NCBI GenBank assembly: GCA_041158505.1
Contig: JBEBBG010000015.1
Span: 12,642-76,641 of the forward strand
DNA: 64,000 nucleotides
DNA from: Candidatus Parcubacteria bacterium
GTDB lineage: Bacteria; Patescibacteriota; Minisyncoccia; Phycocordibacterales; JAACPR01
Direction: 5' to 3'
Within the stretch, counting starts at the first letter, position 1; each line of letters opens with the position of its first letter. The notes beneath the pieces were generated by a model. It was given only the letters and a program-made list of their open reading frames with translations, ran no database searches and had not been told where the DNA came from. Both the position numbers and the translations under genes were made by a program. Of the stretch, positions 19,707-60,126 are shown piece by piece.

Positions 19707-20807
19707 CTACTTATTGAGCGGCATTACGAGGTACAAGAATGTTGGGTCGTTCACCCCACGAATAACAACTGGTTTGGTACGACCATTAAACATCAAAACA
19801 ATACTGTCTGAGTTAATAGAACCAAACGCATCGCTCACGTACTTGTGATTAAAACTAATCTCCACGGCCTCTCCGCGCAGTGTTGCATCGACAACATTTC
19901 TGTTCTCACCCTTGTCGACATTTTTCGACGTGAGCTCAAAAACACCGTCATCCGGTCGAATAGACACAGTGACCTGATTAAAGCTGTCTGAGAAGAGATT
20001 TGAGAGTTTTAGGGCCTGTACAAGATCCTGTTTGAGCACCGTAACCTCTGTCGTGTTGTCTTTTGGAATAATCTGCTGATAGTCAGGAAAGTTTCCGTCC
20101 ACAATCCTGGTCATAAGGTACACTCCGTCGTGAACAAATGCCACCTGACCACTCTCGAAACGAACCTCGATGTCTGCCTGTACATCATCAAAAACTCGAA
20201 TGATTTCAGCGACGTTTCGATGAGGAATAAGGACACTTTCGAACTGGTCAACCTCCCTCGCTTCAATTCGCTTCTCAGCAAGTCGAAACGAGTCCGTAGC
20301 AACAAACATCAGGTTTCCATCCTTTGGGTATAAGTACACACTCGAAAGCTCTGGTTTCATACTTGAAACCGAAGCACTGTACCAAACCGACTTGAGACCA
20401 TGGATGAGCATTGGGGCAGATATTTTGCAGGTATGCACATTCTCAAGTTGTGGGATTGTTGGAAAATCTTCGTGAGAAAGAGCTTTGATTGTTGTTTCGT
20501 TGTGGCTTGAGGTAATAGTGAGGTTTTGATTTTGAACCTCAAGCGTGATGGTTTCGTGATCAGAAACGTTTGACAGAAATTGAACAAAAAGACCACCAGG
20601 AACCGCAACGACTCCTTCCCGTTCTACCTTTACGGGTACAGACGCTTCAAGACCTAGATCAAGGTTTGTCGCCTTAATATGAAGCTTTGAACCTTTCGCC
20701 TCTAGTAGTACACATGCCAACACTGGCAACGTGGCGTTTTTGCTCGTGATACGATCCGCCTTACTTACCATCGACTGCACTTTTTCCTTCGAGCAAACAA
20801 TCTTCAT
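19707..20807 (-). CDS. dnaN: DNA polymerase III beta sliding clamp
   Basis: 366 aa; MKIVCSKEKV...LPVLACVLLEAKGSKLHIKATNLDLG is a beta-clamp N-terminus; three-domain length. Confidence 0.9.
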   Translation of the reverse strand: MKIVCSKEKVQSMVSKADRITSKNATLPVLACVLLEAKGSKLHIKATNLDLGLEASVPVKVEREGVVAVPGGLFVQFLSNVSDHETITLEVQNQNLTITSSHNETTIKALSHEDFPTIPQLENVHTCKISAPMLIHGLKSVWYSASVSSMKPELSSVYLYPKDGNLMFVATDSFRLAEKRIEAREVDQFESVLIPHRNVAEIIRVFDDVQADIEVRFESGQVAFVHDGVYLMTRIVDGNFPDYQQIIPKDNTTEVTVLKQDLVQALKLSNLFSDSFNQVTVSIRPDDGVFELTSKNVDKGENRNVVDATLRGEAVEISFNHKYVSDAFGSINSDSIVLMFNGRTKPVVIRGVNDPTFLYLVMPLNK

Positions 20808-21077
20808 ACCTGTTGATAATTAATCTTTTAAACCCAACTACTGTCTCTATTAGGACTGTGGATATGTGTATAACCTGCGGATAGTGTTATTTTACAAGCT
20901 TATTTTGTCCCCACCGAACTGCGTTTGTGTGGGGATAGTTTTGAACTTGTTTGGGATAACGAGCAGTATCCTCTAGCTTACCTACATTTATCCAGTTCTC
21001 AAGCAACCGATTTCCCCTAGTAATCCACAAATATCCCCAATACTTTGCCCTAAAATCAACAACTTATCCACATCTTA
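20808..21077. promoter_or_regulatory. DnaA-box cluster in the dnaA-dnaN spacer (oriC candidate / dnaN promoter region)
   Basis: Perfect TTATCCACA at 21064-21072; 1-mismatch boxes TGTGGATAT at 20857-20865 and TAATCCACA at 21021-21029; weaker boxes at 20876, 20951 and 20988. Confidence 0.55.
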
Positions 21078-22436
21078 TTAGAGCATTGCCCTAATCTGAT
21101 TAAGCTGCTGGTTGAGAAGCTGGTCGTTTTTGAGGTCGTTTTTCATCTTTTCACAAGAGTGAATAACGGTTGTGTGGTCCCTTCCCCCAAGCTTCTCTCC
21201 AATTGTTGGGTATGAGGTATTGAAATCCTCACGGAGGATGTACATGGTTATTTGTCGTGGTCGAACTACCTCCTTTCGGCGTGTTTTGTCGCAAATGTCG
21301 TCTGGGTTAATGTTGTAGAAGTCTGCAACGATTTTAATGAGGTCTTTAATTGAGACCATTTTCTTTGGTTTTGCACTGTTTTTAATGAGGTCTTTAACAT
21401 CATTAAGGTTTAGTTCACGGTTTTTAAGCTGGGATTGGCACGCGATAGAGTTAATAACGCCCTCAAGCTCACGGATGTTTCCTTCAATGCTCGTTGCTAG
21501 GTACTCAAGGATGTCGTTTGAAAGAACGATGTTATTTTGAGCCATTTTTGCATTTAAAATCGCGATACGAGACTCTGTGTCTGGTTTTGGAATGTCCACG
21601 ATCATACCCTGGTTGAAGCGTGACTTAAGCCTGTCTTCAAGGCCTGGAATGTATGACGGGTGCTTATCTGAAGAGAAAACAATCTGCTTGTTGTTGTCGT
21701 AGAGGGTGTTGAAAAGGTGGAAGAGCTCTTCTTGGGTTTTATCTTTATCTGAAAGAAACTGGATATCATCCATGATTAAAACGTCGTATTTTCGGTACTT
21801 TTCTTTAAATGCGAGCCCTTTGTTTTGTTGAATAGCGGCAATGTACTCAGAGGTAAATTTCTCTGAGGTTAGATAAAAAACCTTTTTTGATCGATCTTGC
21901 TCTTTGATTTTATTACCAATTGCTTGAATGAGGTGTGTTTTGCCGTGACCGGTGCTTCCGTATATGAAAAGTGGGTTGTATACGATTCCTGGCTGCTTAA
22001 TGATCGCCTGTGCGGCAGCGTGTGCAAGTTCGTTGAAAGAGCCAATAATAAAGGTTTCAAAGGTGTACCGAGGGTTGAGGTTGTCGTCCTTGTTGATGTA
22101 GTAGTCTGACAAAGGAAGCTCTCCCCCATCACGATTTTCTCGTTTGATTGGTTTTGGTTTCTGGTTGCGCGCCTTCTCGATGTTTGCAACAACAAATTCA
22201 ACAGCTCGAATGTCGTCGGTTTGATCGCGAAGTGTTTTAAGGATGGTTTTACCGTATTTGTTGAAAAGCCAGTCTTTTACAAAGGTGTTTGGAACACCAA
22301 CAATTGCTACACCATCATCAATTTTGACTACAAAAGTGTCTTTAAACCAGGTTGCAAAGTTTGCTTTAGATACAGTTACCTCAATAGATGCGAGTGCATT
22401 CTCCCAAAGTGTTTTGCTGTCTAAGGTAACTGACAT
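21078..22436 (-). CDS. dnaA: chromosomal replication initiator DnaA
   Basis: AAA+ GSTGHGKTHLIQAIGN and a C-terminal DnaA-box-binding domain; probable start MSVTLDSKTLWENAL (ATG at 22436). The track ORF extends to 22481. Confidence 0.9.
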   Translation of the reverse strand: MSVTLDSKTLWENALASIEVTVSKANFATWFKDTFVVKIDDGVAIVGVPNTFVKDWLFNKYGKTILKTLRDQTDDIRAVEFVVANIEKARNQKPKPIKRENRDGGELPLSDYYINKDDNLNPRYTFETFIIGSFNELAHAAAQAIIKQPGIVYNPLFIYGSTGHGKTHLIQAIGNKIKEQDRSKKVFYLTSEKFTSEYIAAIQQNKGLAFKEKYRKYDVLIMDDIQFLSDKDKTQEELFHLFNTLYDNNKQIVFSSDKHPSYIPGLEDRLKSRFNQGMIVDIPKPDTESRIAILNAKMAQNNIVLSNDILEYLATSIEGNIRELEGVINSIACQSQLKNRELNLNDVKDLIKNSAKPKKMVSIKDLIKIVADFYNINPDDICDKTRRKEVVRPRQITMYILREDFNTSYPTIGEKLGGRDHTTVIHSCEKMKNDLKNDQLLNQQLNQIRAML

Positions 22437-22549
22437 ACGTTGCAACGGTAAACGTGTGCCTATTATATACTCGAGCGCCAACTGGGAAACTTGTTAAAAA
22501 AACTAGTTTATGTTAAAACGATGTTCACGAGACGAAATAAGTAACGCAT

Positions 22550-22705
22550 ATGTCTGTAACATACAAACCAAAGCGACGAAAGCGAGCAAAGACCCACGGG
22601 TTCTTGGTTCGCTCACGAACCCCAGGAGGAAAGCGAGTACTCGCTCGACGCCGACAAAAGGGGCGAGCAAAGCTCACCGTGTCTCGAAAACGAGCGTCAT
22701 AATAA
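22550..22705 (+). CDS. rpmH: 50S ribosomal protein L34 (below the ORF-track length cutoff)
   Basis: ATG at 22550; [50 protein letters not shown] (51 aa) is a textbook L34 sequence; TAA at 22703-22705. Confidence 0.85.
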
Positions 22706-22706
22706 A

Positions 22707-22745
22707 GGCAAAAACCGCGCTTGGCGCGGTTTTTGCCTTTTTCTT
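22707..22745 (+). terminator. Rho-independent terminator/attenuator between rpmH and rnpA
   Basis: ggcaaaaaccgcgc-ttg-gcgcggtttttgcc followed by tttttctt. Confidence 0.7.
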
Positions 22746-25956: not shown

Positions 25957-26394
25957 CTAAAAACCAAGGTCCACAATGAAATCTCCAGGACCTCCCGTTC
26001 CCAAGATGAGGTTGAGGACATAAATACAAACAAGGGCTATAGCGAGACCGCCAAGTGCTGCTGTAATTCTGTCTTTTCCTTCTGATTTACCAAACAACGA
26101 CTCGGTTCCCATATATTGAACTCCTCCAACTACAAGCATGATGACCGCAAGAATAATGGTAATACTGACAAGCCATTTGAAAAGCTGAGCCAGCATCTGT
26201 GGCAGCGAACCCCCAAAGTTGACACCGCTAATTGACTGGTACCCACCTCCCCCTTGAATGTTCTGTTGCTCAGGGCTGACAGGCGCTTCTTGTGCATGAA
26301 GCACCGCAACTCCTTGCACAAAGAGCAATGATGCAACACAAAACGCGGTCACTCCTTTTTTAAAATACGGTAACATTGCCTGTTTGAAGTTCAT
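25957..26394 (-). CDS. VirB2/TrbC-like pilin candidate
   Basis: 145 aa: about 33-aa signal peptide (cleavage after HAQ/EA), then two hydrophobic helices (LFKWLVSITIILAVIMLVVGGV and ITAALGGLAIALVCIYVLNLIL) separated by a short loop: T4SS pilin architecture. Confidence 0.45.
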   Translation of the reverse strand: MNFKQAMLPYFKKGVTAFCVASLLFVQGVAVLHAQEAPVSPEQQNIQGGGGYQSISGVNFGGSLPQMLAQLFKWLVSITIILAVIMLVVGGVQYMGTESLFGKSEGKDRITAALGGLAIALVCIYVLNLILGTGGPGDFIVDLGF

Positions 26395-28053: not shown

Positions 28054-29925
28054 CTATCGTACACCCTTAATCTCTAGTCCACCACGAAGAGCTTCTGGAT
28101 TTGCCATACCACCAGATGCGCGGAGTTCTTCTTTTGCACGCTTAATTTGCAGCACCTGTGATGGGTCTGAGGTGATGATCTGGTCTTCAGTGTATGAGGC
28201 GATAATTTTAATCGCAATGTGCTTGATGCCAGCAAAGAAGATTCCCTCTCCCACTCCAGACTCAAGGAGAAGATACTTCTCTTCCTCGGTGAGGTTAAAG
28301 GTTTGCTGAATCATATCGATTGCAGTCGGTGATTGTTTCAAGAGGAGCTGGATTGATGAGTTGGTGATGATCGGCATACCGTATGGCGATCGAAGGAAGT
28401 CCTCAACGTCTTGGGTAATGGTAGACATACCGAGATAGTATTTTCGTCCTCGTTTTGCAAGCCCAAAGAGGAACGACGCGGTGTCGTCTGATTTCATCAT
28501 CCACCACGCCTCATCGATTACGAGCAGTCGCTTTTTGAGCTCTTTGCGCACAGCATTCCAAATGAAGTGCGTCACAAGGTACATTGCAACCGGCTTAAGT
28601 TCATCTTCCATGTCTCGAAGCGAGAACACGATGAAGCGCTTGTTTACGTCGATGTTTGTTGGTTTGTTGATGAAACCTGCCCAGGTACCACGTGTGTACT
28701 TTGAAAGCTTTTGAGCCATACTCTCCCCTCCCTCCATGCCGGAGAGCACATACTCGAAGTCAGAAAGAAGTGGTGGTTCAATATTTGAGAAATCACTTTC
28801 GGGAGTAATGTCTTTAAGCGCGTACGTTTCAGAAATCGCGCGATCAACGAGCGCATCTTCCTCAGGGGTGAGTCCACCAAGCATGAGTCGGAAAAGACCA
28901 ACAAGGTTCACAATATTTGATCGGAGCACGTCACCTGCAGATTCATCTGGTGTTGGTGGTGCAAGGTCAAACGGGTTGATGTGGTGATCTGAAGTAAGAG
29001 AAATATTGAAGTAGCGCCCGCCTGTTGCTTCCGCAAGGAATTCATATTCACGTTCCGGGTCGATTACAATGACGTCGGTGTCGAGCATCAGGGTGCGCAA
29101 GATCTCGAGCTTTGATGCGTACGATTTACCAGAACCAGCCTTTGCAAAGGTAACTGAGTTGTAGTTTTCAAGACTGAATCGGTCAAAGAGGACGAGCGAG
29201 TTGTTGTGTCGGTTAATACCAAAGAGAATTCCCTTATCCGAGGTAAGGTCAAACGAGATGAATGGAAAGAGGCTCGAGAGTGGTGCTGAGTTGAGCTTTG
29301 AATGCACGCCGAGAAGATCTTGCCCTGTTGGAATAACGGTCTTAAATGCCTCCTCCTGCTGGAAGAGTGCAGGCTTTACGTACACCAACTTTGCTTCGAG
29401 AATCGACTTTACCTCAGAATCGAACTTGTCGAGCTCATCTTTGTTGTCCGCATAGATGCTGATATAGAGACCAACATCAAAGATTTTCTCTTGTGCCTGC
29501 TGGAGGTTGTCACGGAGAATTTCAAGGTCTTGGTATGCGGTGTCGAGTACAGGATCGCGTACAAGCCCCTTCTCTTCTCGGGTGTGAATCTGGCTCTGCA
29601 CTTCGGCTACTTTCTTTTTAAATTGTCGAAGGATGGTTGCGGTATCGATTGGGTGCACAAAAATCGATACATCAAATACTTTGTCGAGGTTGATGATTGG
29701 TGCAAACCACGAGTCTGAAAGGAAGCGTGGGTACGAGATAACGAAGAACGTGCGCACCATTTTGTCACCAAGGTTGATGTCACGAGGGCTCATCTTGAGC
29801 GCTGAAGGCGCAATCACGTCTTGTAGCTCAAGCACGCCCGCCTCGTAAATTTCTTGTGGAAGAAATGACGTAATGTCAGGTGTTTTTGGAGCTTCCTTTT
29901 TCTTTAGAAAATCAAAGAGGGCCAT
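28054..29925 (-). CDS. T4SS ATPase VirB4/TrbE/PrgJ family, ATPase portion
   Basis: VirB4 N-region RTFFVISYP...FVHPID; Walker A FAKAGSGKSYA; Walker B LLVIDEAWWM; C-terminal TrbE-type domain. Starts at an ATG one codon after the in-frame TAG that ends the upstream ORF. Confidence 0.8.
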   Translation of the reverse strand: MALFDFLKKKEAPKTPDITSFLPQEIYEAGVLELQDVIAPSALKMSPRDINLGDKMVRTFFVISYPRFLSDSWFAPIINLDKVFDVSIFVHPIDTATILRQFKKKVAEVQSQIHTREEKGLVRDPVLDTAYQDLEILRDNLQQAQEKIFDVGLYISIYADNKDELDKFDSEVKSILEAKLVYVKPALFQQEEAFKTVIPTGQDLLGVHSKLNSAPLSSLFPFISFDLTSDKGILFGINRHNNSLVLFDRFSLENYNSVTFAKAGSGKSYASKLEILRTLMLDTDVIVIDPEREYEFLAEATGGRYFNISLTSDHHINPFDLAPPTPDESAGDVLRSNIVNLVGLFRLMLGGLTPEEDALVDRAISETYALKDITPESDFSNIEPPLLSDFEYVLSGMEGGESMAQKLSKYTRGTWAGFINKPTNIDVNKRFIVFSLRDMEDELKPVAMYLVTHFIWNAVRKELKKRLLVIDEAWWMMKSDDTASFLFGLAKRGRKYYLGMSTITQDVEDFLRSPYGMPIITNSSIQLLLKQSPTAIDMIQQTFNLTEEEKYLLLESGVGEGIFFAGIKHIAIKIIASYTEDQIITSDPSQVLQIKRAKEELRASGGMANPEALRGGLEIKGVR

Positions 29926-30605: not shown

Positions 30606-31043
30606 TTACTGACGTGTGCGCGGATCAACGTCCTGGAGTGTTTGCAACGTCTCGTGAATATCGAGTCCCCACGATAAATCTTTGAGCTTACTGTTTGTTA
30701 CTTTTGGCACCTCTTGCGTAACGTACTGAATGACTTCGGCCGCTTTCTTCTCAGGTGTTTTTTCCCGTTTTTTCCAGAGGTATAACTTTGGTGAAAAGAT
30801 GAAACGAAACGCTGTTTCGAGGACCACAACAAGCGGCCGATTGTTTACTTGGTAAAAGGCAAAGCCAAAAAAGAGGAGTACTACTGGTAAGCCAATGACA
30901 ATTGCTAGAACCTTGGGCATGGTAGTCCAAAAGATGAAGGCGAACGCCAACCCCGCAGCCGAGTACAGGAACTGTTTAAGGGTGAGTGGTCCAAAAATCT
31001 TATCTTCTACTTCAAGGAATTGTGGTACTTGGTATTTTGCCAT
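30606..31043 (-). CDS. PrgI-family (VirB3-like) small membrane protein
   Basis: MAKYQVPQFLEVEDKIFGPLTLKQFLYSAAG then two TM helices: the PrgI-family signature (VPxDLxxEDKIFGxLTLRQ) and the canonical position immediately upstream of VirB4. Confidence 0.6.
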   Translation of the reverse strand: MAKYQVPQFLEVEDKIFGPLTLKQFLYSAAGLAFAFIFWTTMPKVLAIVIGLPVVLLFFGFAFYQVNNRPLVVVLETAFRFIFSPKLYLWKKREKTPEKKAAEVIQYVTQEVPKVTNSKLKDLSWGLDIHETLQTLQDVDPRTRQ

Positions 31044-55797: not shown

Positions 55798-55848
55798 GGT
55801 AAACGGAATGTGCTTTAGGGTAATGCATTTAGTGTAACAGGATTTGTA

Positions 55849-55918
55849 AACGTAAAGGACATTCAGCAAACACAACTGTGGATAAAGGACAGTTATCCAC
55901 ATGGTATGTCCTTTACAC
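55849..55918. promoter_or_regulatory. nested palindrome carrying two perfect inverted DnaA boxes upstream of the surface-protein gene
   Basis: cGTAAAGGACAT...TGTGGATAA(55877-55885)aggacagTTATCCACA(55893-55901)tggtATGTCCTTTACac; a further GTAAAGGACA copy at about 56190. Confidence 0.55.
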
Positions 55919-56256: not shown

Positions 56257-57729
56257 TTACTCTACGTGATGCTTCTTACGTAGCTGCTTTACTTCCTTTT
56301 CATCTTCGAGAGAAAGCTTTTCTTTCCCTTGTTTTCCAAGTCTTTCAAGATCTTCAAATGGTAGCTGGTTTAGCTCTAGTGCCCGTTTTTCAAGGTACTT
56401 CTCTGTATTTCGCTCTGGTTCTTCAAGGATTTCATCAAAAAGCGTGTACAGTATATGTCCAATCTTTGGTCCCTTATCAACTCCCATGTTCATAAGATCT
56501 GTCCCGTCGATTTTTAACATGGTCACAGAAAGCGGTGCCCGAAGCGCTTCTTCAATCATAGATTGATACTTTCTGAAGCGGTATGGCTCTTCTTTTGGTC
56601 GTCCCGTACCAATTCGGTCGCATTTCCTAAGGTTTACAAGGTCCCAGATATTATCTTCTCCCACTTTTGCAATGATGCGCCGGACAGCAGAAAGTGTGAT
56701 TTGCTCAGGATCAGCAAAAAACATGTGCCAACGCACAAGCGTGGTTACTTTTTGAATGGTTTCACGTGAAAAACGTAGATTTTCCAGAGTTTCACGTGTA
56801 ACTCGCGCACCCACCACTTCGTGGCCAAAGAAAGTTGCCTTTTTCCCTACCATTCTCTTTGTGTGAGGTTTTGCAACGTCATGAAACAGTACAGCAAGGC
56901 GTAGCTCTAAATCGTACCCCTTATCGGCGGCGTGCTGTAAAGCTCGTAGAGAATGTTCAAAAACATCGTATTTGTGAGCCTGTGTTTCTTGTGAAACACC
57001 GACCATACCCTCAAGAGCTTCAGAAACATGACGAAGCAGGCCAAGCCTTTGCATCATTACAAGTCCGAGCATTGGGTTATCAGACATAATAAGCTTTACA
57101 AACTCCTCCCTAATCCTTTCACGTGAAACGTTCCCCAGTAGGTCCCCCATTTCTTCAATCGCCTTTGCGGTATCTGATTCAATAAAGAAACCAAGCTCAG
57201 CGCTAAATCGAACGGCGCGCATAATTCGAAGGGCATCTTCTTCAAAGCGTTCCTGTGGATTTCCTACAGTACGTAGTTTTTTGGCCACCAAATCATCCTG
57301 TCCTTTATAAGGATCAACAATCTGTCCTTTAGAAAGTGCGATGGCATTTACTGTAAAATCACGTCGAGACAGATCGTCCCCTATCTTTTTGCTAAAGGTC
57401 ACCGAGTCCGGATGACGATTATCTGAGTACTTTGATTCAAGCCGGTATGGGGTAACCTCTACAATCTTCATTCGTTCATCATCGCTGCGCGTCTTTACCC
57501 CCACTGTTCCGAAGGTGTTTTCGTAGAAAGAATCAGGAAAAATCTCCTGGATTTCTTCAGGGGTAGCATTTGTTGTGGCGTCCCAATCTTTTGGTTCTCG
57601 GCCCAAAATCAGGTCCCGGACACAGCCTCCTACGAGGTACGCCTCGAAACCAGCGGCCTCAAGCCCCTCAAGCACTTCCCCAACTGGCTTTGGTATGTCA
57701 TACTTGCCTTGCTTCATACGTACCGCCAT
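56257..57729 (-). CDS. cca: CCA-adding tRNA nucleotidyltransferase with HD domain
   Basis: GGCVRDLILGREPKDWD head-domain motif; HD motif (LFHDVAKP); 490 aa. Confidence 0.85.
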   Translation of the reverse strand: MAVRMKQGKYDIPKPVGEVLEGLEAAGFEAYLVGGCVRDLILGREPKDWDATTNATPEEIQEIFPDSFYENTFGTVGVKTRSDDERMKIVEVTPYRLESKYSDNRHPDSVTFSKKIGDDLSRRDFTVNAIALSKGQIVDPYKGQDDLVAKKLRTVGNPQERFEEDALRIMRAVRFSAELGFFIESDTAKAIEEMGDLLGNVSRERIREEFVKLIMSDNPMLGLVMMQRLGLLRHVSEALEGMVGVSQETQAHKYDVFEHSLRALQHAADKGYDLELRLAVLFHDVAKPHTKRMVGKKATFFGHEVVGARVTRETLENLRFSRETIQKVTTLVRWHMFFADPEQITLSAVRRIIAKVGEDNIWDLVNLRKCDRIGTGRPKEEPYRFRKYQSMIEEALRAPLSVTMLKIDGTDLMNMGVDKGPKIGHILYTLFDEILEEPERNTEKYLEKRALELNQLPFEDLERLGKQGKEKLSLEDEKEVKQLRKKHHVE

Positions 57730-57777
57730 TGTAGCAGCATGTAGATATTTTGCGACTTTGGCGTATACTGAGCAAAC

Positions 57778-57852
57778 GCTCTCGTGGTGAAATGGATATC
57801 ACAGCGGTCTTCGGAACCGTCGTTGGGGGTTCGAATCCCTCCGAGAGCACCA
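57778..57852 (+). tRNA. tRNA-Arg (anticodon TCG), CCA encoded
   Basis: Acceptor gctctcg/cgagagc, D-stem gtga/tcac, anticodon loop cuUCGga, T-arm ggggttcgaatccct, 3' ACCA; TATACT -10 at 57766. Confidence 0.8.
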
Positions 57853-57855
57853 AGT

Positions 57856-58110
57856 ATGGCAAAGAAAAAGTTCGTTTGTACCAATATCGTTTGCAAGAAT
57901 CCAAATCTTAACCTTATTCTAAGCCTTATTGCTGTTGTTTGGTTGTGGCGAGGTATTTGGGGGCTTACTGACGCAGTCGTTTTTGCTTCTACCCCGTTTG
58001 ATCTCGAGCACTTACTCGGGTATGGCGTCCCAATCCTCATTGGTATTGCGTACCTATACTTCAACGATTACTCAATTTCAGAGCTCACCCACGGGACTCC
58101 AAACGATTAA
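57856..58110 (+). CDS. hypothetical small membrane protein
   Basis: ATG at 57856 right after the tRNA; MAKKKFVCTNIVC... then two hydrophobic helices; followed by a weak hairpin (58112-58134). The track ORF 57784..58110 overlaps the tRNA and is N-extended. Confidence 0.4.
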   Translation: MAKKKFVCTNIVCKNPNLNLILSLIAVVWLWRGIWGLTDAVVFASTPFDLEHLLGYGVPILIGIAYLYFNDYSISELTHGTPND

Positions 58111-58190
58111 AAAATCCCCCTTGTAGGGGGATTTGGGCGTTGTCCTGATTGCGTATTTAAAGAAAAGCTATATAATTCCTCAGACCACAC

Positions 58191-58261
58191 GCGGGTATAG
58201 TTTAGTGGTAGAACGAGTCCTTGCCAAGGATTAGATGGGAGTTCGATTCTCCCTATCCGCA
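58191..58261 (+). tRNA. tRNA-Gly (anticodon GCC)
   Basis: Acceptor gcgggta/tatccgc, anticodon loop uuGCCaa, T-arm gggagttcgattctccc; TATAAT -10 at 58173-58178. Confidence 0.8.
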
Positions 58262-58384
58262 CCGATACATTATTGTAGTGCCTTAACCATCAGTCGAGCT
58301 GCGTAGCAAACAAGTCCTTAAAGAAAAAGACATAGCACGTATTGGTCAGCAAGGTTGCTGTAAGGCAAATCGAAAATGTCCTAG

Positions 58385-58447
58385 TAATCCCCATATTTTT
58401 CAATAAAATTGTGGAAAACTGTGGATAACTCTGGGGATATGTGTATA
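58385..58447. promoter_or_regulatory. dense DnaA-box cluster followed by an AT-rich tract (alternative oriC or DnaA-titration site)
   Basis: Perfect TGTGGATAA at 58421-58429; 1-mismatch boxes TGTGGAAAA (58410-58418) and TGTGTATAA (58439-58447); weaker boxes at 58386 and 58432; then about 200 bp that looks AT-rich by eye. Confidence 0.5.
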
Positions 58448-58563
58448 AAAGACAGCATTTTTAGACAGTTTTCAAGGCCACTTTTCCTTTAAAAATGGCT
58501 TTGTTGAGCTCTATTTTACTTTTTTAAGACATTGTTTTACAAAATAGCCTTATTTTAGTATAT

Positions 58564-58658
58564 GTTTCACGTGAAACACTACTTGTTTTCATAAAATAAG
58601 CACTTTTTCTTTAATAAAGTTTCATGTGTAACGGTATATGATCGTTTCACTTGAAAAC
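58564..58658. promoter_or_regulatory. three tandem GTTTCACGTGAAAC-type palindromic operator-like sites upstream of the yraN-like gene
   Basis: Perfect 14-bp palindrome gtttcacgtgaaac at 58564-58577; variants gtttcatgtgtaac (58619-58632) and gtttcacttgaaaac (58643-58657). Confidence 0.5.
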
Positions 58659-59040
58659 AAGAAAGGATATTGGGAATTACGGAGAACAAGAAGCTGTTGA
58701 TTTTTTAGAGAAAAGGGGCTTTAAAGTGCTAAAAAGAAACTACAGACTCTTCTTTGGAGAAATCGACATTATAGCTGAGCGGGCTGGGGTTATTCACTTT
58801 GTGGAGGTAAAAACCGTTTCACAAGAAACATTTTCACGCGGAATCAAGCCCGAAGATCATGTTACACGTGAAAAGATAAGCAGAATTATGAAGGTTGCAG
58901 AGTTTTTTCTGGCAAACAGTAATCTTTTTAACAGAAAAACCCAGATTGACGTGGTCTCGATTGTTAAACCTCAAGATGTGTTACACATGAAACCGGTTAT
59001 ATATCTGTTTGAGCACGTTACTCGAGACCGTCTATCCTAG
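58651..59040 (+). CDS. YraN-family (UPF0102) PD-(D/E)xK endonuclease
   Basis: GEQEAVDFLEKRGFKVLKRNYRLFFGEIDIIAERAGVIHFVEVK matches the YraN core (GE.AE...L...G..IL.RN.R...GEIDLIA....LVFVEVK); TTG start at 58651. Confidence 0.7.
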   Translation: MKTRKDIGNYGEQEAVDFLEKRGFKVLKRNYRLFFGEIDIIAERAGVIHFVEVKTVSQETFSRGIKPEDHVTREKISRIMKVAEFFLANSNLFNRKTQIDVVSIVKPQDVLHMKPVIYLFEHVTRDRLS

Positions 59041-59173
59041 ACGATGGGGAATTCTAGTGCTACTATGACGCTACACCACAAGGTTATATATAGTCATTTT
59101 TCTCTATATACGTGCTGTGTCGGTGTACCCATATTCACCCGTGTGCCGTTTACACGGGGTGTAAAGAATGAAA

Positions 59174-59246
59174 CGGGGCGTGGTGTAACGGCTAACATGC
59201 TCGGTTTGGGACCGAGTGACTCCGGGTTCGAATCCCGGCGCCCCGA
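59174..59246 (+). tRNA. tRNA-Pro (anticodon TGG)
   Basis: Acceptor cggggcg/cgccccg, anticodon loop uuUGGga, T-arm ccgggttcgaatcccgg. Confidence 0.8.
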
Positions 59247-59253
59247 CTACAAT

Positions 59254-60126
59254 ATGAAACTGGTAACGCATGAAGGAAGCTTCCATCTTGACGACCTCTT
59301 TGCTGTTGCGACTATTACGCTCCTCTATCCAGATATTGAGATTGTACGGACAAGAGACGCAAGCAAGTTTGGGGACGCTGATTTTGTTGTAGATGTTGGG
59401 GATATTTGTGATCCTGCGACAAACCGATTTGATCATCACCAGCATGGTGGGGCAGGAGTTCGTGAGAACGGTGTGCCATACGCGAGTTTTGGTCTGGTCT
59501 GGAAAAAGTACGGCAAAATGGTGTCTGGGGAAGAGCGAATCGCTGATTTGGTAGATAAAAAGATGGTGCAGCCGATTGATGCAGCTGATAACGGCTTCAA
59601 TATGTACCGGGAAACAAAACCTGGCCTTTCACCTTACTTGCTCGACAACGCATTCAAGGCGCTGACGCCAACGTGGCGAGATCCAGAGACGGTTGATGAT
59701 ACGTTTGCCAATTTGCTTCCACTGGCACAAGAGATTTTGCGTCGAGAGATTAAGAAGGCCCAGTATTTCTTTGAGGACACGGAAATTGTGAAGGAGGCGT
59801 ACCGTGTTGCTGAGGATAAGCGAATTATTGTCCTTGAGCATCCAATGGCGTGGAAATCGGTGATTTCGAGGAAGCGTGAGCCAGTATATGTGATTCATCC
59901 AAATCAGATGACTGGGGAGTGGATTGTGGCATGTGTACGAAAGTCTCCACAGTCACACGAAAACCGAAAGCTGCTACCAAAGGCGTGGGCAGGGAAGCGT
60001 GGTAAGGAGTTAGAGCAAGCAACTGGTGTGCAGGGCGCTGAAGCTTGCCACAATAAGCGCTTCATTGCGACAGCCTGGACACGTGAGGCCGCGATTAAGC
60101 TGGCACAGTTGGCGCTGCAGGCGTAA
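59254..60126 (+). CDS. MYG1/UPF0160-family metal-dependent hydrolase (paralog 1, canonical)
   Basis: ATG at 59254; LVTHEGSFHLDDLFAVATITLLYPDIEIVRTRD...VVDVGDICDPATNRFDHHQHG reproduces the MYG1 N-terminal metal-site motifs. The track ORF 59044..60126 reads through tRNA-Pro and is N-extended. Confidence 0.75.
   Translation: MKLVTHEGSFHLDDLFAVATITLLYPDIEIVRTRDASKFGDADFVVDVGDICDPATNRFDHHQHGGAGVRENGVPYASFGLVWKKYGKMVSGEERIADLVDKKMVQPIDAADNGFNMYRETKPGLSPYLLDNAFKALTPTWRDPETVDDTFANLLPLAQEILRREIKKAQYFFEDTEIVKEAYRVAEDKRIIVLEHPMAWKSVISRKREPVYVIHPNQMTGEWIVACVRKSPQSHENRKLLPKAWAGKRGKELEQATGVQGAEACHNKRFIATAWTREAAIKLAQLALQA

Follow-up and report, generated by a model that had tools for sequence, protein, structure and literature searches.

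Very probably, the chromosomal replication origin (oriC) of the bacterium that contributed the present 64,000 nucleotides of Candidatus Parcubacteria DNA (referred to as the window in the following) is the 270-bp spacer between the genes dnaA and dnaN, which occupies positions 20808-21077, has a GC content of 39% and resembles in its sequence a compact, single-part version of the incC region with the basal unwinding system (BUS) in the origin of Bacillus subtilis. A sequence-only reading of the window had put this spacer forward as an oriC candidate, and the proposal is supported by a phased cluster of DnaA boxes, by an unwinding module that is also found in related genomes, by the minimum of the GC skew and by a change point in strand composition that was determined with gene orientation controlled. 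In addition, the DnaA protein encoded next to the spacer is intact and its DNA-contact residues are conserved. Judged by these features, the spacer would be a well-supported DnaA-dependent origin of the known dnaA-dnaN type, and not a new kind of element.

The spacer corresponds exactly to the gap between the stop of dnaA (21078) and the start of dnaN (20807), both of which are located on the minus strand according to the map of open reading frames (ORFs) and to Pfam. The gene dnaN (19707-20807) encodes the beta clamp of DNA polymerase III (366 aa) with the N-terminal, central and C-terminal DNA_pol3_beta domains, and dnaA (21078-22436) encodes a protein of 452 aa with the domains DnaA_N, Bac_DnaA and Bac_DnaA_C. 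The mechanical ORF of dnaA reaches up to a TTG at 22481; the ATG at 22436 is taken here as the start, in agreement with the 452-aa call on a near-identical metagenome contig from JGI. Upstream of dnaA and divergent from it lie rpmH (22550-22702, plus strand), rnpA and a short yidC; rpmH was recognised as the gene of ribosomal protein L34 from its translation and, on the JGI contig, from the Pfam domain Ribosomal_L34. The textbook position next to rpmH-rnpA-yidC and dnaA-dnaN, which had been claimed from the sequence alone, is confirmed by the ORF map and Pfam. As the JGI contig matches the window with a single mismatch over 20.5 kb, the sequence of the spacer recurs on a metagenome contig that was catalogued independently. 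The host is an uncultivated, ultrasmall member of the Patescibacteria with a Paceibacteria-like genome; the nearest relatives of its DnaA (81-58% identity) belong without exception to metagenome-assembled Patescibacteria, labelled Paceibacterota, Taylorbacteria, Parcubacteria or similar.

A full scan of the spacer revealed 12 DnaA boxes with at most two mismatches (one perfect, four with one mismatch and seven with two), where about 0.7-1.2 are expected; the other 270-bp windows of the 64 kb contain 0.71 on average and 6 at most. For boxes with at most one mismatch the corresponding figures are 5 in the spacer against a mean of 0.054 and a maximum of 3 elsewhere. The Poisson probabilities of these counts are 4e-9 (at most one mismatch) and 2e-11 (at most two), and among 20,000 sequences simulated by a first-order Markov model of the spacer's own composition, not one matched either the 5 or the 12 boxes. 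Indeed, the spacer is the best-scoring 270-bp window for DnaA boxes in the whole 64 kb. The cluster is real, its enrichment being far above chance, and an oriC box cluster in the usual sense, i.e. at least three close boxes well above background, is present.

The boxes are arranged in two opposed arrays, of which the first five boxes, counted from dnaA, face dnaA and the following ones face dnaN. The dnaA-proximal array (plus strand) begins 5 bp from the dnaA stop with the perfect box TTATCCACA (21064-21072), which is kept with its GTTGTT flank in an alignment of the four closest relatives, and continues with ATATCCCCA (21031-21039), the one-mismatch box TAATCCACA (21021-21029), TTATCCAGT (20988-20996) and TTACCTACA (20978-20986), with start-to-start spacings of 33, 10, 33 and 10 bp. 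The dnaN-proximal array (minus strand) consists of the weak boxes TTATCCCAA (20951-20959), CTATCCCCA (20930-20938) and CTATCCGCA (20876-20884) and ends with the one-mismatch boxes TTATACACA (20865-20873) and ATATCCACA (20857-20865). At a period of 10.5 bp both arrays show helical phasing (R=0.89, p=0.004 for the dnaA-proximal and R=0.69, p=0.05 for the dnaN-proximal one). A two-mismatch match of opposite orientation, TTGTCCCCA (20905-20913, plus strand), may be a chance occurrence. The last one-mismatch box, TTATCAACA (20811-20819, minus strand), lies inside an AT-rich candidate unwinding element and stops 3 bp short of the dnaN ATG, over the ribosome-binding region, where most relatives have no box. 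The sequence-only reading had listed the perfect box and the one-mismatch boxes at 20857 and 21021, all three of which were recovered, besides mentioning several weaker ones; the one-mismatch boxes TTATACACA and TTATCAACA and the seven two-mismatch boxes come from the full scan. Repeats other than the boxes were limited, within the spacer, to short box-derived matches. A non-coding RNA in the spacer was dropped after an Rfam scan without a match at E<=1.

The two boxes that end the dnaN-proximal array form a tandem co-oriented pair with an offset of 8 bp (TTATACACA/ATATCCACA, 17-mer TTATACACATATCCACA, 20857-20873, minus strand), which carries one mismatch in each box and points at a run of trio-like triplets; from its sequence we propose it as the box pair of a BUS and as the counterpart of DnaA-boxes 6 and 7 of B. 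subtilis. The offset is presumably the same in B. subtilis boxes 6/7. The origin sequences of B. subtilis and Escherichia coli contributed to the rule by which boxes and trios were oriented. The BUS was defined in B. subtilis and consists of a co-oriented box pair, a short G/C spacer, trios of the 3'-GAT-5' type and AT-rich DNA (PMC8287927, PMC6669920). Its criteria (Richardson 2019, Pelliciari 2021; from PMC8287927) ask for a box with at most two mismatches, usually within a co-oriented tandem pair aimed at the trios, and for at least three consecutive 3'-NAN-5' trios within 16 bp of the box, ideally with 3'-GAT-5' beside the box. The window contains both such a box pair and AT-rich, easily melted DNA beyond the trios. 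In the direction from dnaA to dnaN, the pair is followed by GTC, by CTA ATA GAG ACA GTA GTT, by the AT-rich sequence TTTAAAAGATTAATTATCAACA and by the dnaN ATG. On the plus strand this represents a spacer triplet GAC (20854-20856) and a DnaA-trio-like array (together 20836-20856), whose triplets read 3'-GAT TAT CTC TGT CAT CAA-5' away from the boxes (20836-20853); the central A is retained in trios 1, 2, 5 and 6 and lost in trios 3 (CTC) and 4 (TGT). The triplet strands of B. subtilis (5'-CTACTATTACTTCTACTA-3'; PMC10201434) and Clostridioides difficile (5'-CACCTACTACTATTACTACTATGA-3'; PMC7561715), both on the dnaA-sense strand, match those of the window in form and orientation, and these two strings together with Treponema and Paceibacteria loci likewise underlie the orientation rule. 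The AT-rich stretch TGTTGATAATTAATCTTTTAAACCC (20811-20835), directly before the dnaN ATG, is the candidate DNA-unwinding element: the 20-mer with the lowest stability in the spacer begins at 20812-20813, adjoins the trios and, with a dG of -20.1, lies at the 99.9th percentile of the window.

The same organisation is found in related genomes. In all 40 related loci that contain both genes, rpmH is divergent from dnaA and dnaN lies directly downstream of it, separated by a spacer of 181-272 bp. These spacers contain on average 2.6 boxes with at most one mismatch and 6.0 with at most two, compared with 0.086 and 1.07, respectively, in every 270 bp of flanking sequence, and about one box with at most one mismatch occurs in the 300 bp upstream of dnaA. 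The orientation of the boxes is likewise shared, since 113 of 133 face dnaA in the first 40% of the spacer and 105 of 118 face dnaN in the remainder, and their spacings peak at 8, 11-12, 21-22, 32-33, 43-46 and 62-64 bp. A recognisable tandem pair (8-bp offset, at most four summed mismatches) was found in 28 of the 40 spacers, with the consensus TTATCCACA.TATCCACA-Gnn-CTA ATA RTA RTA ATA, followed by T/A-rich sequence and dnaN. This consensus comprises five consecutive trios, the central T of which is kept in 26, 25, 22, 23 and 22 of the 28 relatives, respectively, and the relatives carry an AT-rich tract at the same place as the candidate unwinding element of the window. Treponema loci retrieved by the same search show an equivalent module, so that the pattern did not arise from the rule used for the alignment. 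The GC content of the spacer is 39% in the window versus 22-27% in the four closest relatives; in the alignment with these four, a 47-aa ORF (20887-21030, minus strand) shows large gaps and no conserved frame and was not taken as a gene.

Strand composition points to the same place. Within the window, the lowest value of the cumulative GC skew is reached at 21096, i.e. at a distance of 19 bp from the spacer, and a flip of the AT skew occurs at about 20.4 kb. Since gene orientation in the window is very uneven, it was controlled for in the skew analysis: a regression over the individual genes, in which orientation and side were the factors, places the best boundary between the midpoints of dnaN and dnaA, with side effects (GC +0.050, AT -0.062) that correspond to the usual G- and T-rich leading strand. 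Genes of the same strand differ in the GC and AT skew of their third codon positions (GC3 and AT3) across 20.9 kb, with p ranging from 1.6e-4 to 1.7e-3. For example, the median GC3 skew changes from -0.153 to +0.134 in minus-strand genes (p=1.6e-4) and from -0.248 to -0.016 in plus-strand genes (p=9e-4). It is negative in 18 of 19 genes to the left and positive in 16 of 18 genes at 21-40 kb (Fisher p=2e-7), and its sign flips exactly between dnaN (-0.07) and dnaA (+0.36). An orientation-controlled shift around the spacer also exists across the 40 relatives (p=3e-4 and 2e-11, values that are inflated by shared ancestry, the genes being orthologous and not independent samples). A skew switch located elsewhere, which the sequence-only reading had named as evidence that would speak against an origin here, was not found within the 64 kb; the switch with the polarity of an origin lies at the dnaA-dnaN spacer. 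Ordinary bidirectional skew has been reported for most genomes of the candidate phyla radiation (PMC7143001).

The initiator itself appears suited to such an origin. The DnaA of the window possesses all four domains and can be aligned over its full length with the B. subtilis DnaA in the cryo-electron microscopy structure of the BUS complex (8btg, E=9e-118), which is its closest solved relative. The box-reading motif of domain IV, RPRQ...GGRDHTTVIH, is conserved and aligns with the DnaA proteins of B. subtilis and E. coli (8btg, 1j1v), so that, from its domains and this motif, the protein should be able to read the canonical box. The residues by which B. subtilis DnaA holds the trio strand have been reported (PMC10721633), and all seven single-strand-contact positions are identical or conservatively replaced in the window: I190, I193, K222 and E228 are retained as I, I, K and E, and R202, E223 and N187 are represented by K, D and S, respectively.

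From these observations we infer that DnaA binds to the spacer, where exactly the DNA is unwound and that an origin fires there, and the following sequence of events would be conceivable. DnaA would bind to the perfect box at the end of dnaA and to the phased weaker boxes, giving rise to two opposed oligomers, the dnaN-facing one of which would end at the tandem pair (20857-20873). The pair would place ATP-DnaA such that its AAA+ domains could reach onto the adjacent plus strand with the trio-like triplets 3'-GAT TAT ... CAT CAA-5' (20836-20853); the AT-rich stretch 20811-20835 would then be stretched and opened, the helicase would be loaded there, and forks would leave the spacer in both directions.

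Compared with known origins, the spacer shares with incC/BUS of B. subtilis the position between dnaA and dnaN and the succession of a co-oriented box pair, a short G/C spacer, triplets of the 5'-CTA-3' type on the dnaA-sense strand (3'-GAT-5' on the bound strand), AT-rich DNA and dnaN. It differs from that origin in being single-part and only 270 bp long, in its opposed and phased upstream array and in the broken trios 3 and 4, and the clade as a whole differs in that the trios after the first are mostly TAT or CAT instead of GAT. A second box cluster upstream of dnaA, as in B. subtilis, was considered and rejected, because the dnaA-rpmH spacer (22437-22549, 113 bp) contains no DnaA box with at most two mismatches. 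The bipartite origins of C. difficile and Helicobacter pylori (oriC1/oriC2) require or at least possess such an upstream cluster and are in this respect unlike the window, but they resemble it in that unwinding is predicted downstream of dnaA, at a run of trios preceded by boxes (PMC7561715). The oriC of E. coli (between gidA and mioC, with a 13-mer unwinding element, an IHF site and GATC clusters) is, unlike the spacer, not adjacent to dnaA. Neither its 13-mer repeats nor its GATC clustering have a counterpart in the spacer, in which no 13-mer repeat family was found and GATC is absent (0.75 expected); because of the latter, control of the Dam/SeqA type is lacking. There is nevertheless a presumed likeness to E. 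coli in the two opposed arrays, in a strong box beside the unwinding element and in trio-like triplets on the adjoining strand.

Several observations weigh against an origin in the spacer. The main weakness in its anatomy is the partly broken trio run: trios 3 and 4 lack the central A that 22-23 of the 28 relatives keep, and even the loose rule of at least three consecutive NAN trios within 16 bp holds only if the spacer triplet is counted, in which case the array reads CAG-GAT-TAT, breaks at CTC and TGT and resumes with CAT CAA, the box-proximal GAT being present. Moreover, the AT-rich stretch spans no more than about 22 bp, and the coding bases that are co-directed with forks leaving the site amount to only 28% on the right and 44% on the left. 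The window covers just 64 kb, so that the skew minimum could in principle be a local one, and a second conserved array of DnaA boxes is present at 58.4 kb.

If the box cluster served only in the DnaA-dependent transcriptional control of dnaN or of the dnaA-dnaN operon, i.e. in autoregulation, the true origin would have to be sought outside the window, a possibility we consider improbable. It is common for DnaA to control its own operon, the boxes are located directly upstream of dnaN with one of them (20811-20819) overlapping its ribosome-binding region, and the skew is known for the 64-kb window only. A simple consensus scan of the spacer, furthermore, found no terminator-like site after dnaA and no sigma-70-like promoter; elsewhere it gave matches at chance level only and is uninformative. 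Regulation alone, however, leaves unexplained why a tandem pair, a trio periodicity and an AT-rich module occur together in 28 relatives, why there are two opposed and helically phased arrays, and why GC3 and AT3 change sign sharply and exactly at the spacer in the window and its relatives; besides, the roles of regulator and origin are not mutually exclusive. Practically no weight is left for the view that box-like words have accumulated by chance in an AT-rich spacer. Such DNA does raise the background of words similar to TTATCCACA, and seven of the 12 matches carry two mismatches, yet the composition-matched simulations never reached the observed counts, no other part of the 64 kb comes close and the cluster is common to the 40 relatives; simulations and relatives together effectively refute this explanation.

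The array at 58.4 kb leads to a different alternative, in which it would form the functional origin together with a neighbouring cluster of parS sites, and the cluster between dnaA and dnaN would be a relic or a regulatory site. This array (TTATACACA.TATCCCCA-GAG-TTATCCACA-G-TTTTCCACA, 58410-58448, minus strand) consists of four head-to-tail boxes, one of them perfect, lies in a non-coding stretch of 387 bp with about 38% GC and recurs with unchanged spacing in 46 of 80 related loci. Gene orientation diverges there, with almost all genes on the minus strand at 23.9-58 kb and all on the plus strand at 58.65-64 kb, and in each of the 28 testable relatives the raw GC skew climbs from one side of the array to the other; on account of these two features the array was treated as a serious alternative origin. 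The cumulative purine minimum, too, is located nearby (58652). By contrast, 40 aligned loci show neither a trio signal with a periodicity of 3 nt nor an AT-rich tract after the boxes of the array. In the window, genes that share a strand show no difference in third-position GC and AT skew across 58.4 kb (p=0.34 and 0.49), whereas they differ strongly across 20.9 kb, and the GC3 skew at 21-58 kb is positive on the plus strand, although DNA on the left side of an origin should have a negative one. An additive model also fits less well with the origin at 58.4 kb (residuals 0.906 and 0.643 versus 0.743 and 0.440). In the relatives, an orientation-controlled GC3 shift across the array does exist (p=8e-7 and 9e-5), but it leads from clearly negative values to about zero without a change of sign, and gene-specific composition may contribute to it, as every locus contains the same orthologous genes. 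Finally, from what is generally known of ParABS systems, parS clusters are normally found tens of kb away from oriC and not inside it. On third-position skew, the missing trios and AT-rich DNA, and the model fit, the array was rejected as the real origin, and the probability that it holds this role appears very small.

Instead of an origin, we read the second array, which is not part of oriC, as a presumptive origin-proximal DnaA-binding site with a regulatory or segregation function that is coupled to a centromere. It is situated between the tRNA-Gly and UPF0102 genes, within the non-coding region 58264-58650. The 46 conserved copies were found among 80 metagenome loci that carry the neighbouring gene for a CCA-adding enzyme, upstream of this gene and always in the same orientation, with the consensus tgtCTTTtatccaCaTATCCaCAgag-TTATCCACA-GTTtt, offsets fixed at 8/9 and 12 bp and the flanks tGTCYT...GTTT. 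Beside it, at 58563-58578, lies the perfect parS site TGTTTCACGTGAAACA, the centre of eight parS-like sites at 56758-58994. One perfect and seven near matches to TGTTNCACGTGAAACA thereby fall within 2.2 kb, compared with 0.66 expected in 64 kb; four of the sites fall within the gene for the CCA-adding enzyme and three within the UPF0102 gene. In nine relatives, a perfect parS is likewise found beside the second array. Domains of ParA or ParB were not encountered among the window ORFs that were scanned.

The closest known counterparts of this array are the oriC-proximal DnaA-box clusters (DBCs) of B. subtilis and datA of E. coli, which are box clusters outside oriC and, in B. subtilis, near to it; the present array differs from them in its rigid head-to-tail order of three to four boxes, its conserved flank and its clade-wide position beside parS. 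The clusters of B. subtilis have been described as restraining initiation and as interacting genetically with Spo0J/ParB (PMC3245932). As a tentative and rather doubtful extension, the origin region of the clade might have two functional parts over about 30-37 kb, namely the oriC between dnaA and dnaN and the parS-side array as a site of DnaA loading or titration that would couple initiation to ParB-mediated segregation. In the most extreme case, replication could occasionally start at the array as well, in line with the weaker skew at 40-58 kb. In 8-kb bins, the GC3 skew amounts to +0.17 to +0.21 at 21-40 kb and is near zero at 40-58 kb. The relatives show a similar picture, with a skew likewise near zero on the CCA side of the corresponding array and strongly developed on its far side.

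We know of no experimental study of a replication origin in the Patescibacteria (candidate phyla radiation), and full-text literature searches yielded none. Regarding the spacer as oriC, the present analysis supplies a base-resolution origin model for one genome of this group, and the coordinate of the origin can be used for skew-based assembly checks and for coverage-based estimates of growth rate on these metagenome-assembled genomes. Furthermore, an unwinding module of the B. subtilis type (box pair, trios and AT-rich DNA) is kept in many of about 40 Paceibacteria-like genomes, and this conservation therefore lends support to the module being ancestral in bacteria. A cluster resembling a type IV secretion system (T4SS) and adjoining dnaA, dnaN, rpmH, rnpA and ksgA has already been described from Paceibacteria, together with an origin near dnaA that was called only "putative" (PMC12102498). 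In the window, such a T4SS-like cluster (pilin 25957-26394, VirB4/TraG-like ATPase 28054-29925 and PrgI 30606-31043) is part of the block 23881-50996, which also includes ksgA, uvrD/pcrA and comM and has 25 of its 28 genes on the minus strand, i.e. head-on to forks from the proposed origin. A recent inversion as the cause of this arrangement was rejected, because the skew of the block already fits its present orientation.

Some further features of the window were observed in passing. Two perfect boxes in inverted arrangement, TGTGGATAA-N7-TTATCCACA (55877-55901), are located 80-100 bp upstream of the ATG at 55800 of a minus-strand gene whose product is a secreted peptidoglycan-binding protein (domain PG_binding_1); judging from this placement, the pair may be a promoter-region operator and the promoter may be DnaA-controlled. 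One of the two boxes shares the extended flank TGTCCTTTATCCACAGTT with the array at 58.4 kb. The ORF 57714-58064 overlaps a tRNA-Arg on the opposite strand and is probably not a gene. Between rpmH and rnpA, a GC-rich hairpin with a T run (AAAAACCGCGCTTGGCGCGGTTTTTGCC, 22709-22736), which the consensus terminator scan did not list, suggests that rpmH may be terminated separately from rnpA-yidC. Finally, the mechanical ORF 59044-60126 encloses tRNA-Pro (59174-59247), and as the MYG1-family domain of this ORF begins only at residue 72, its true start is located downstream of the tRNA.

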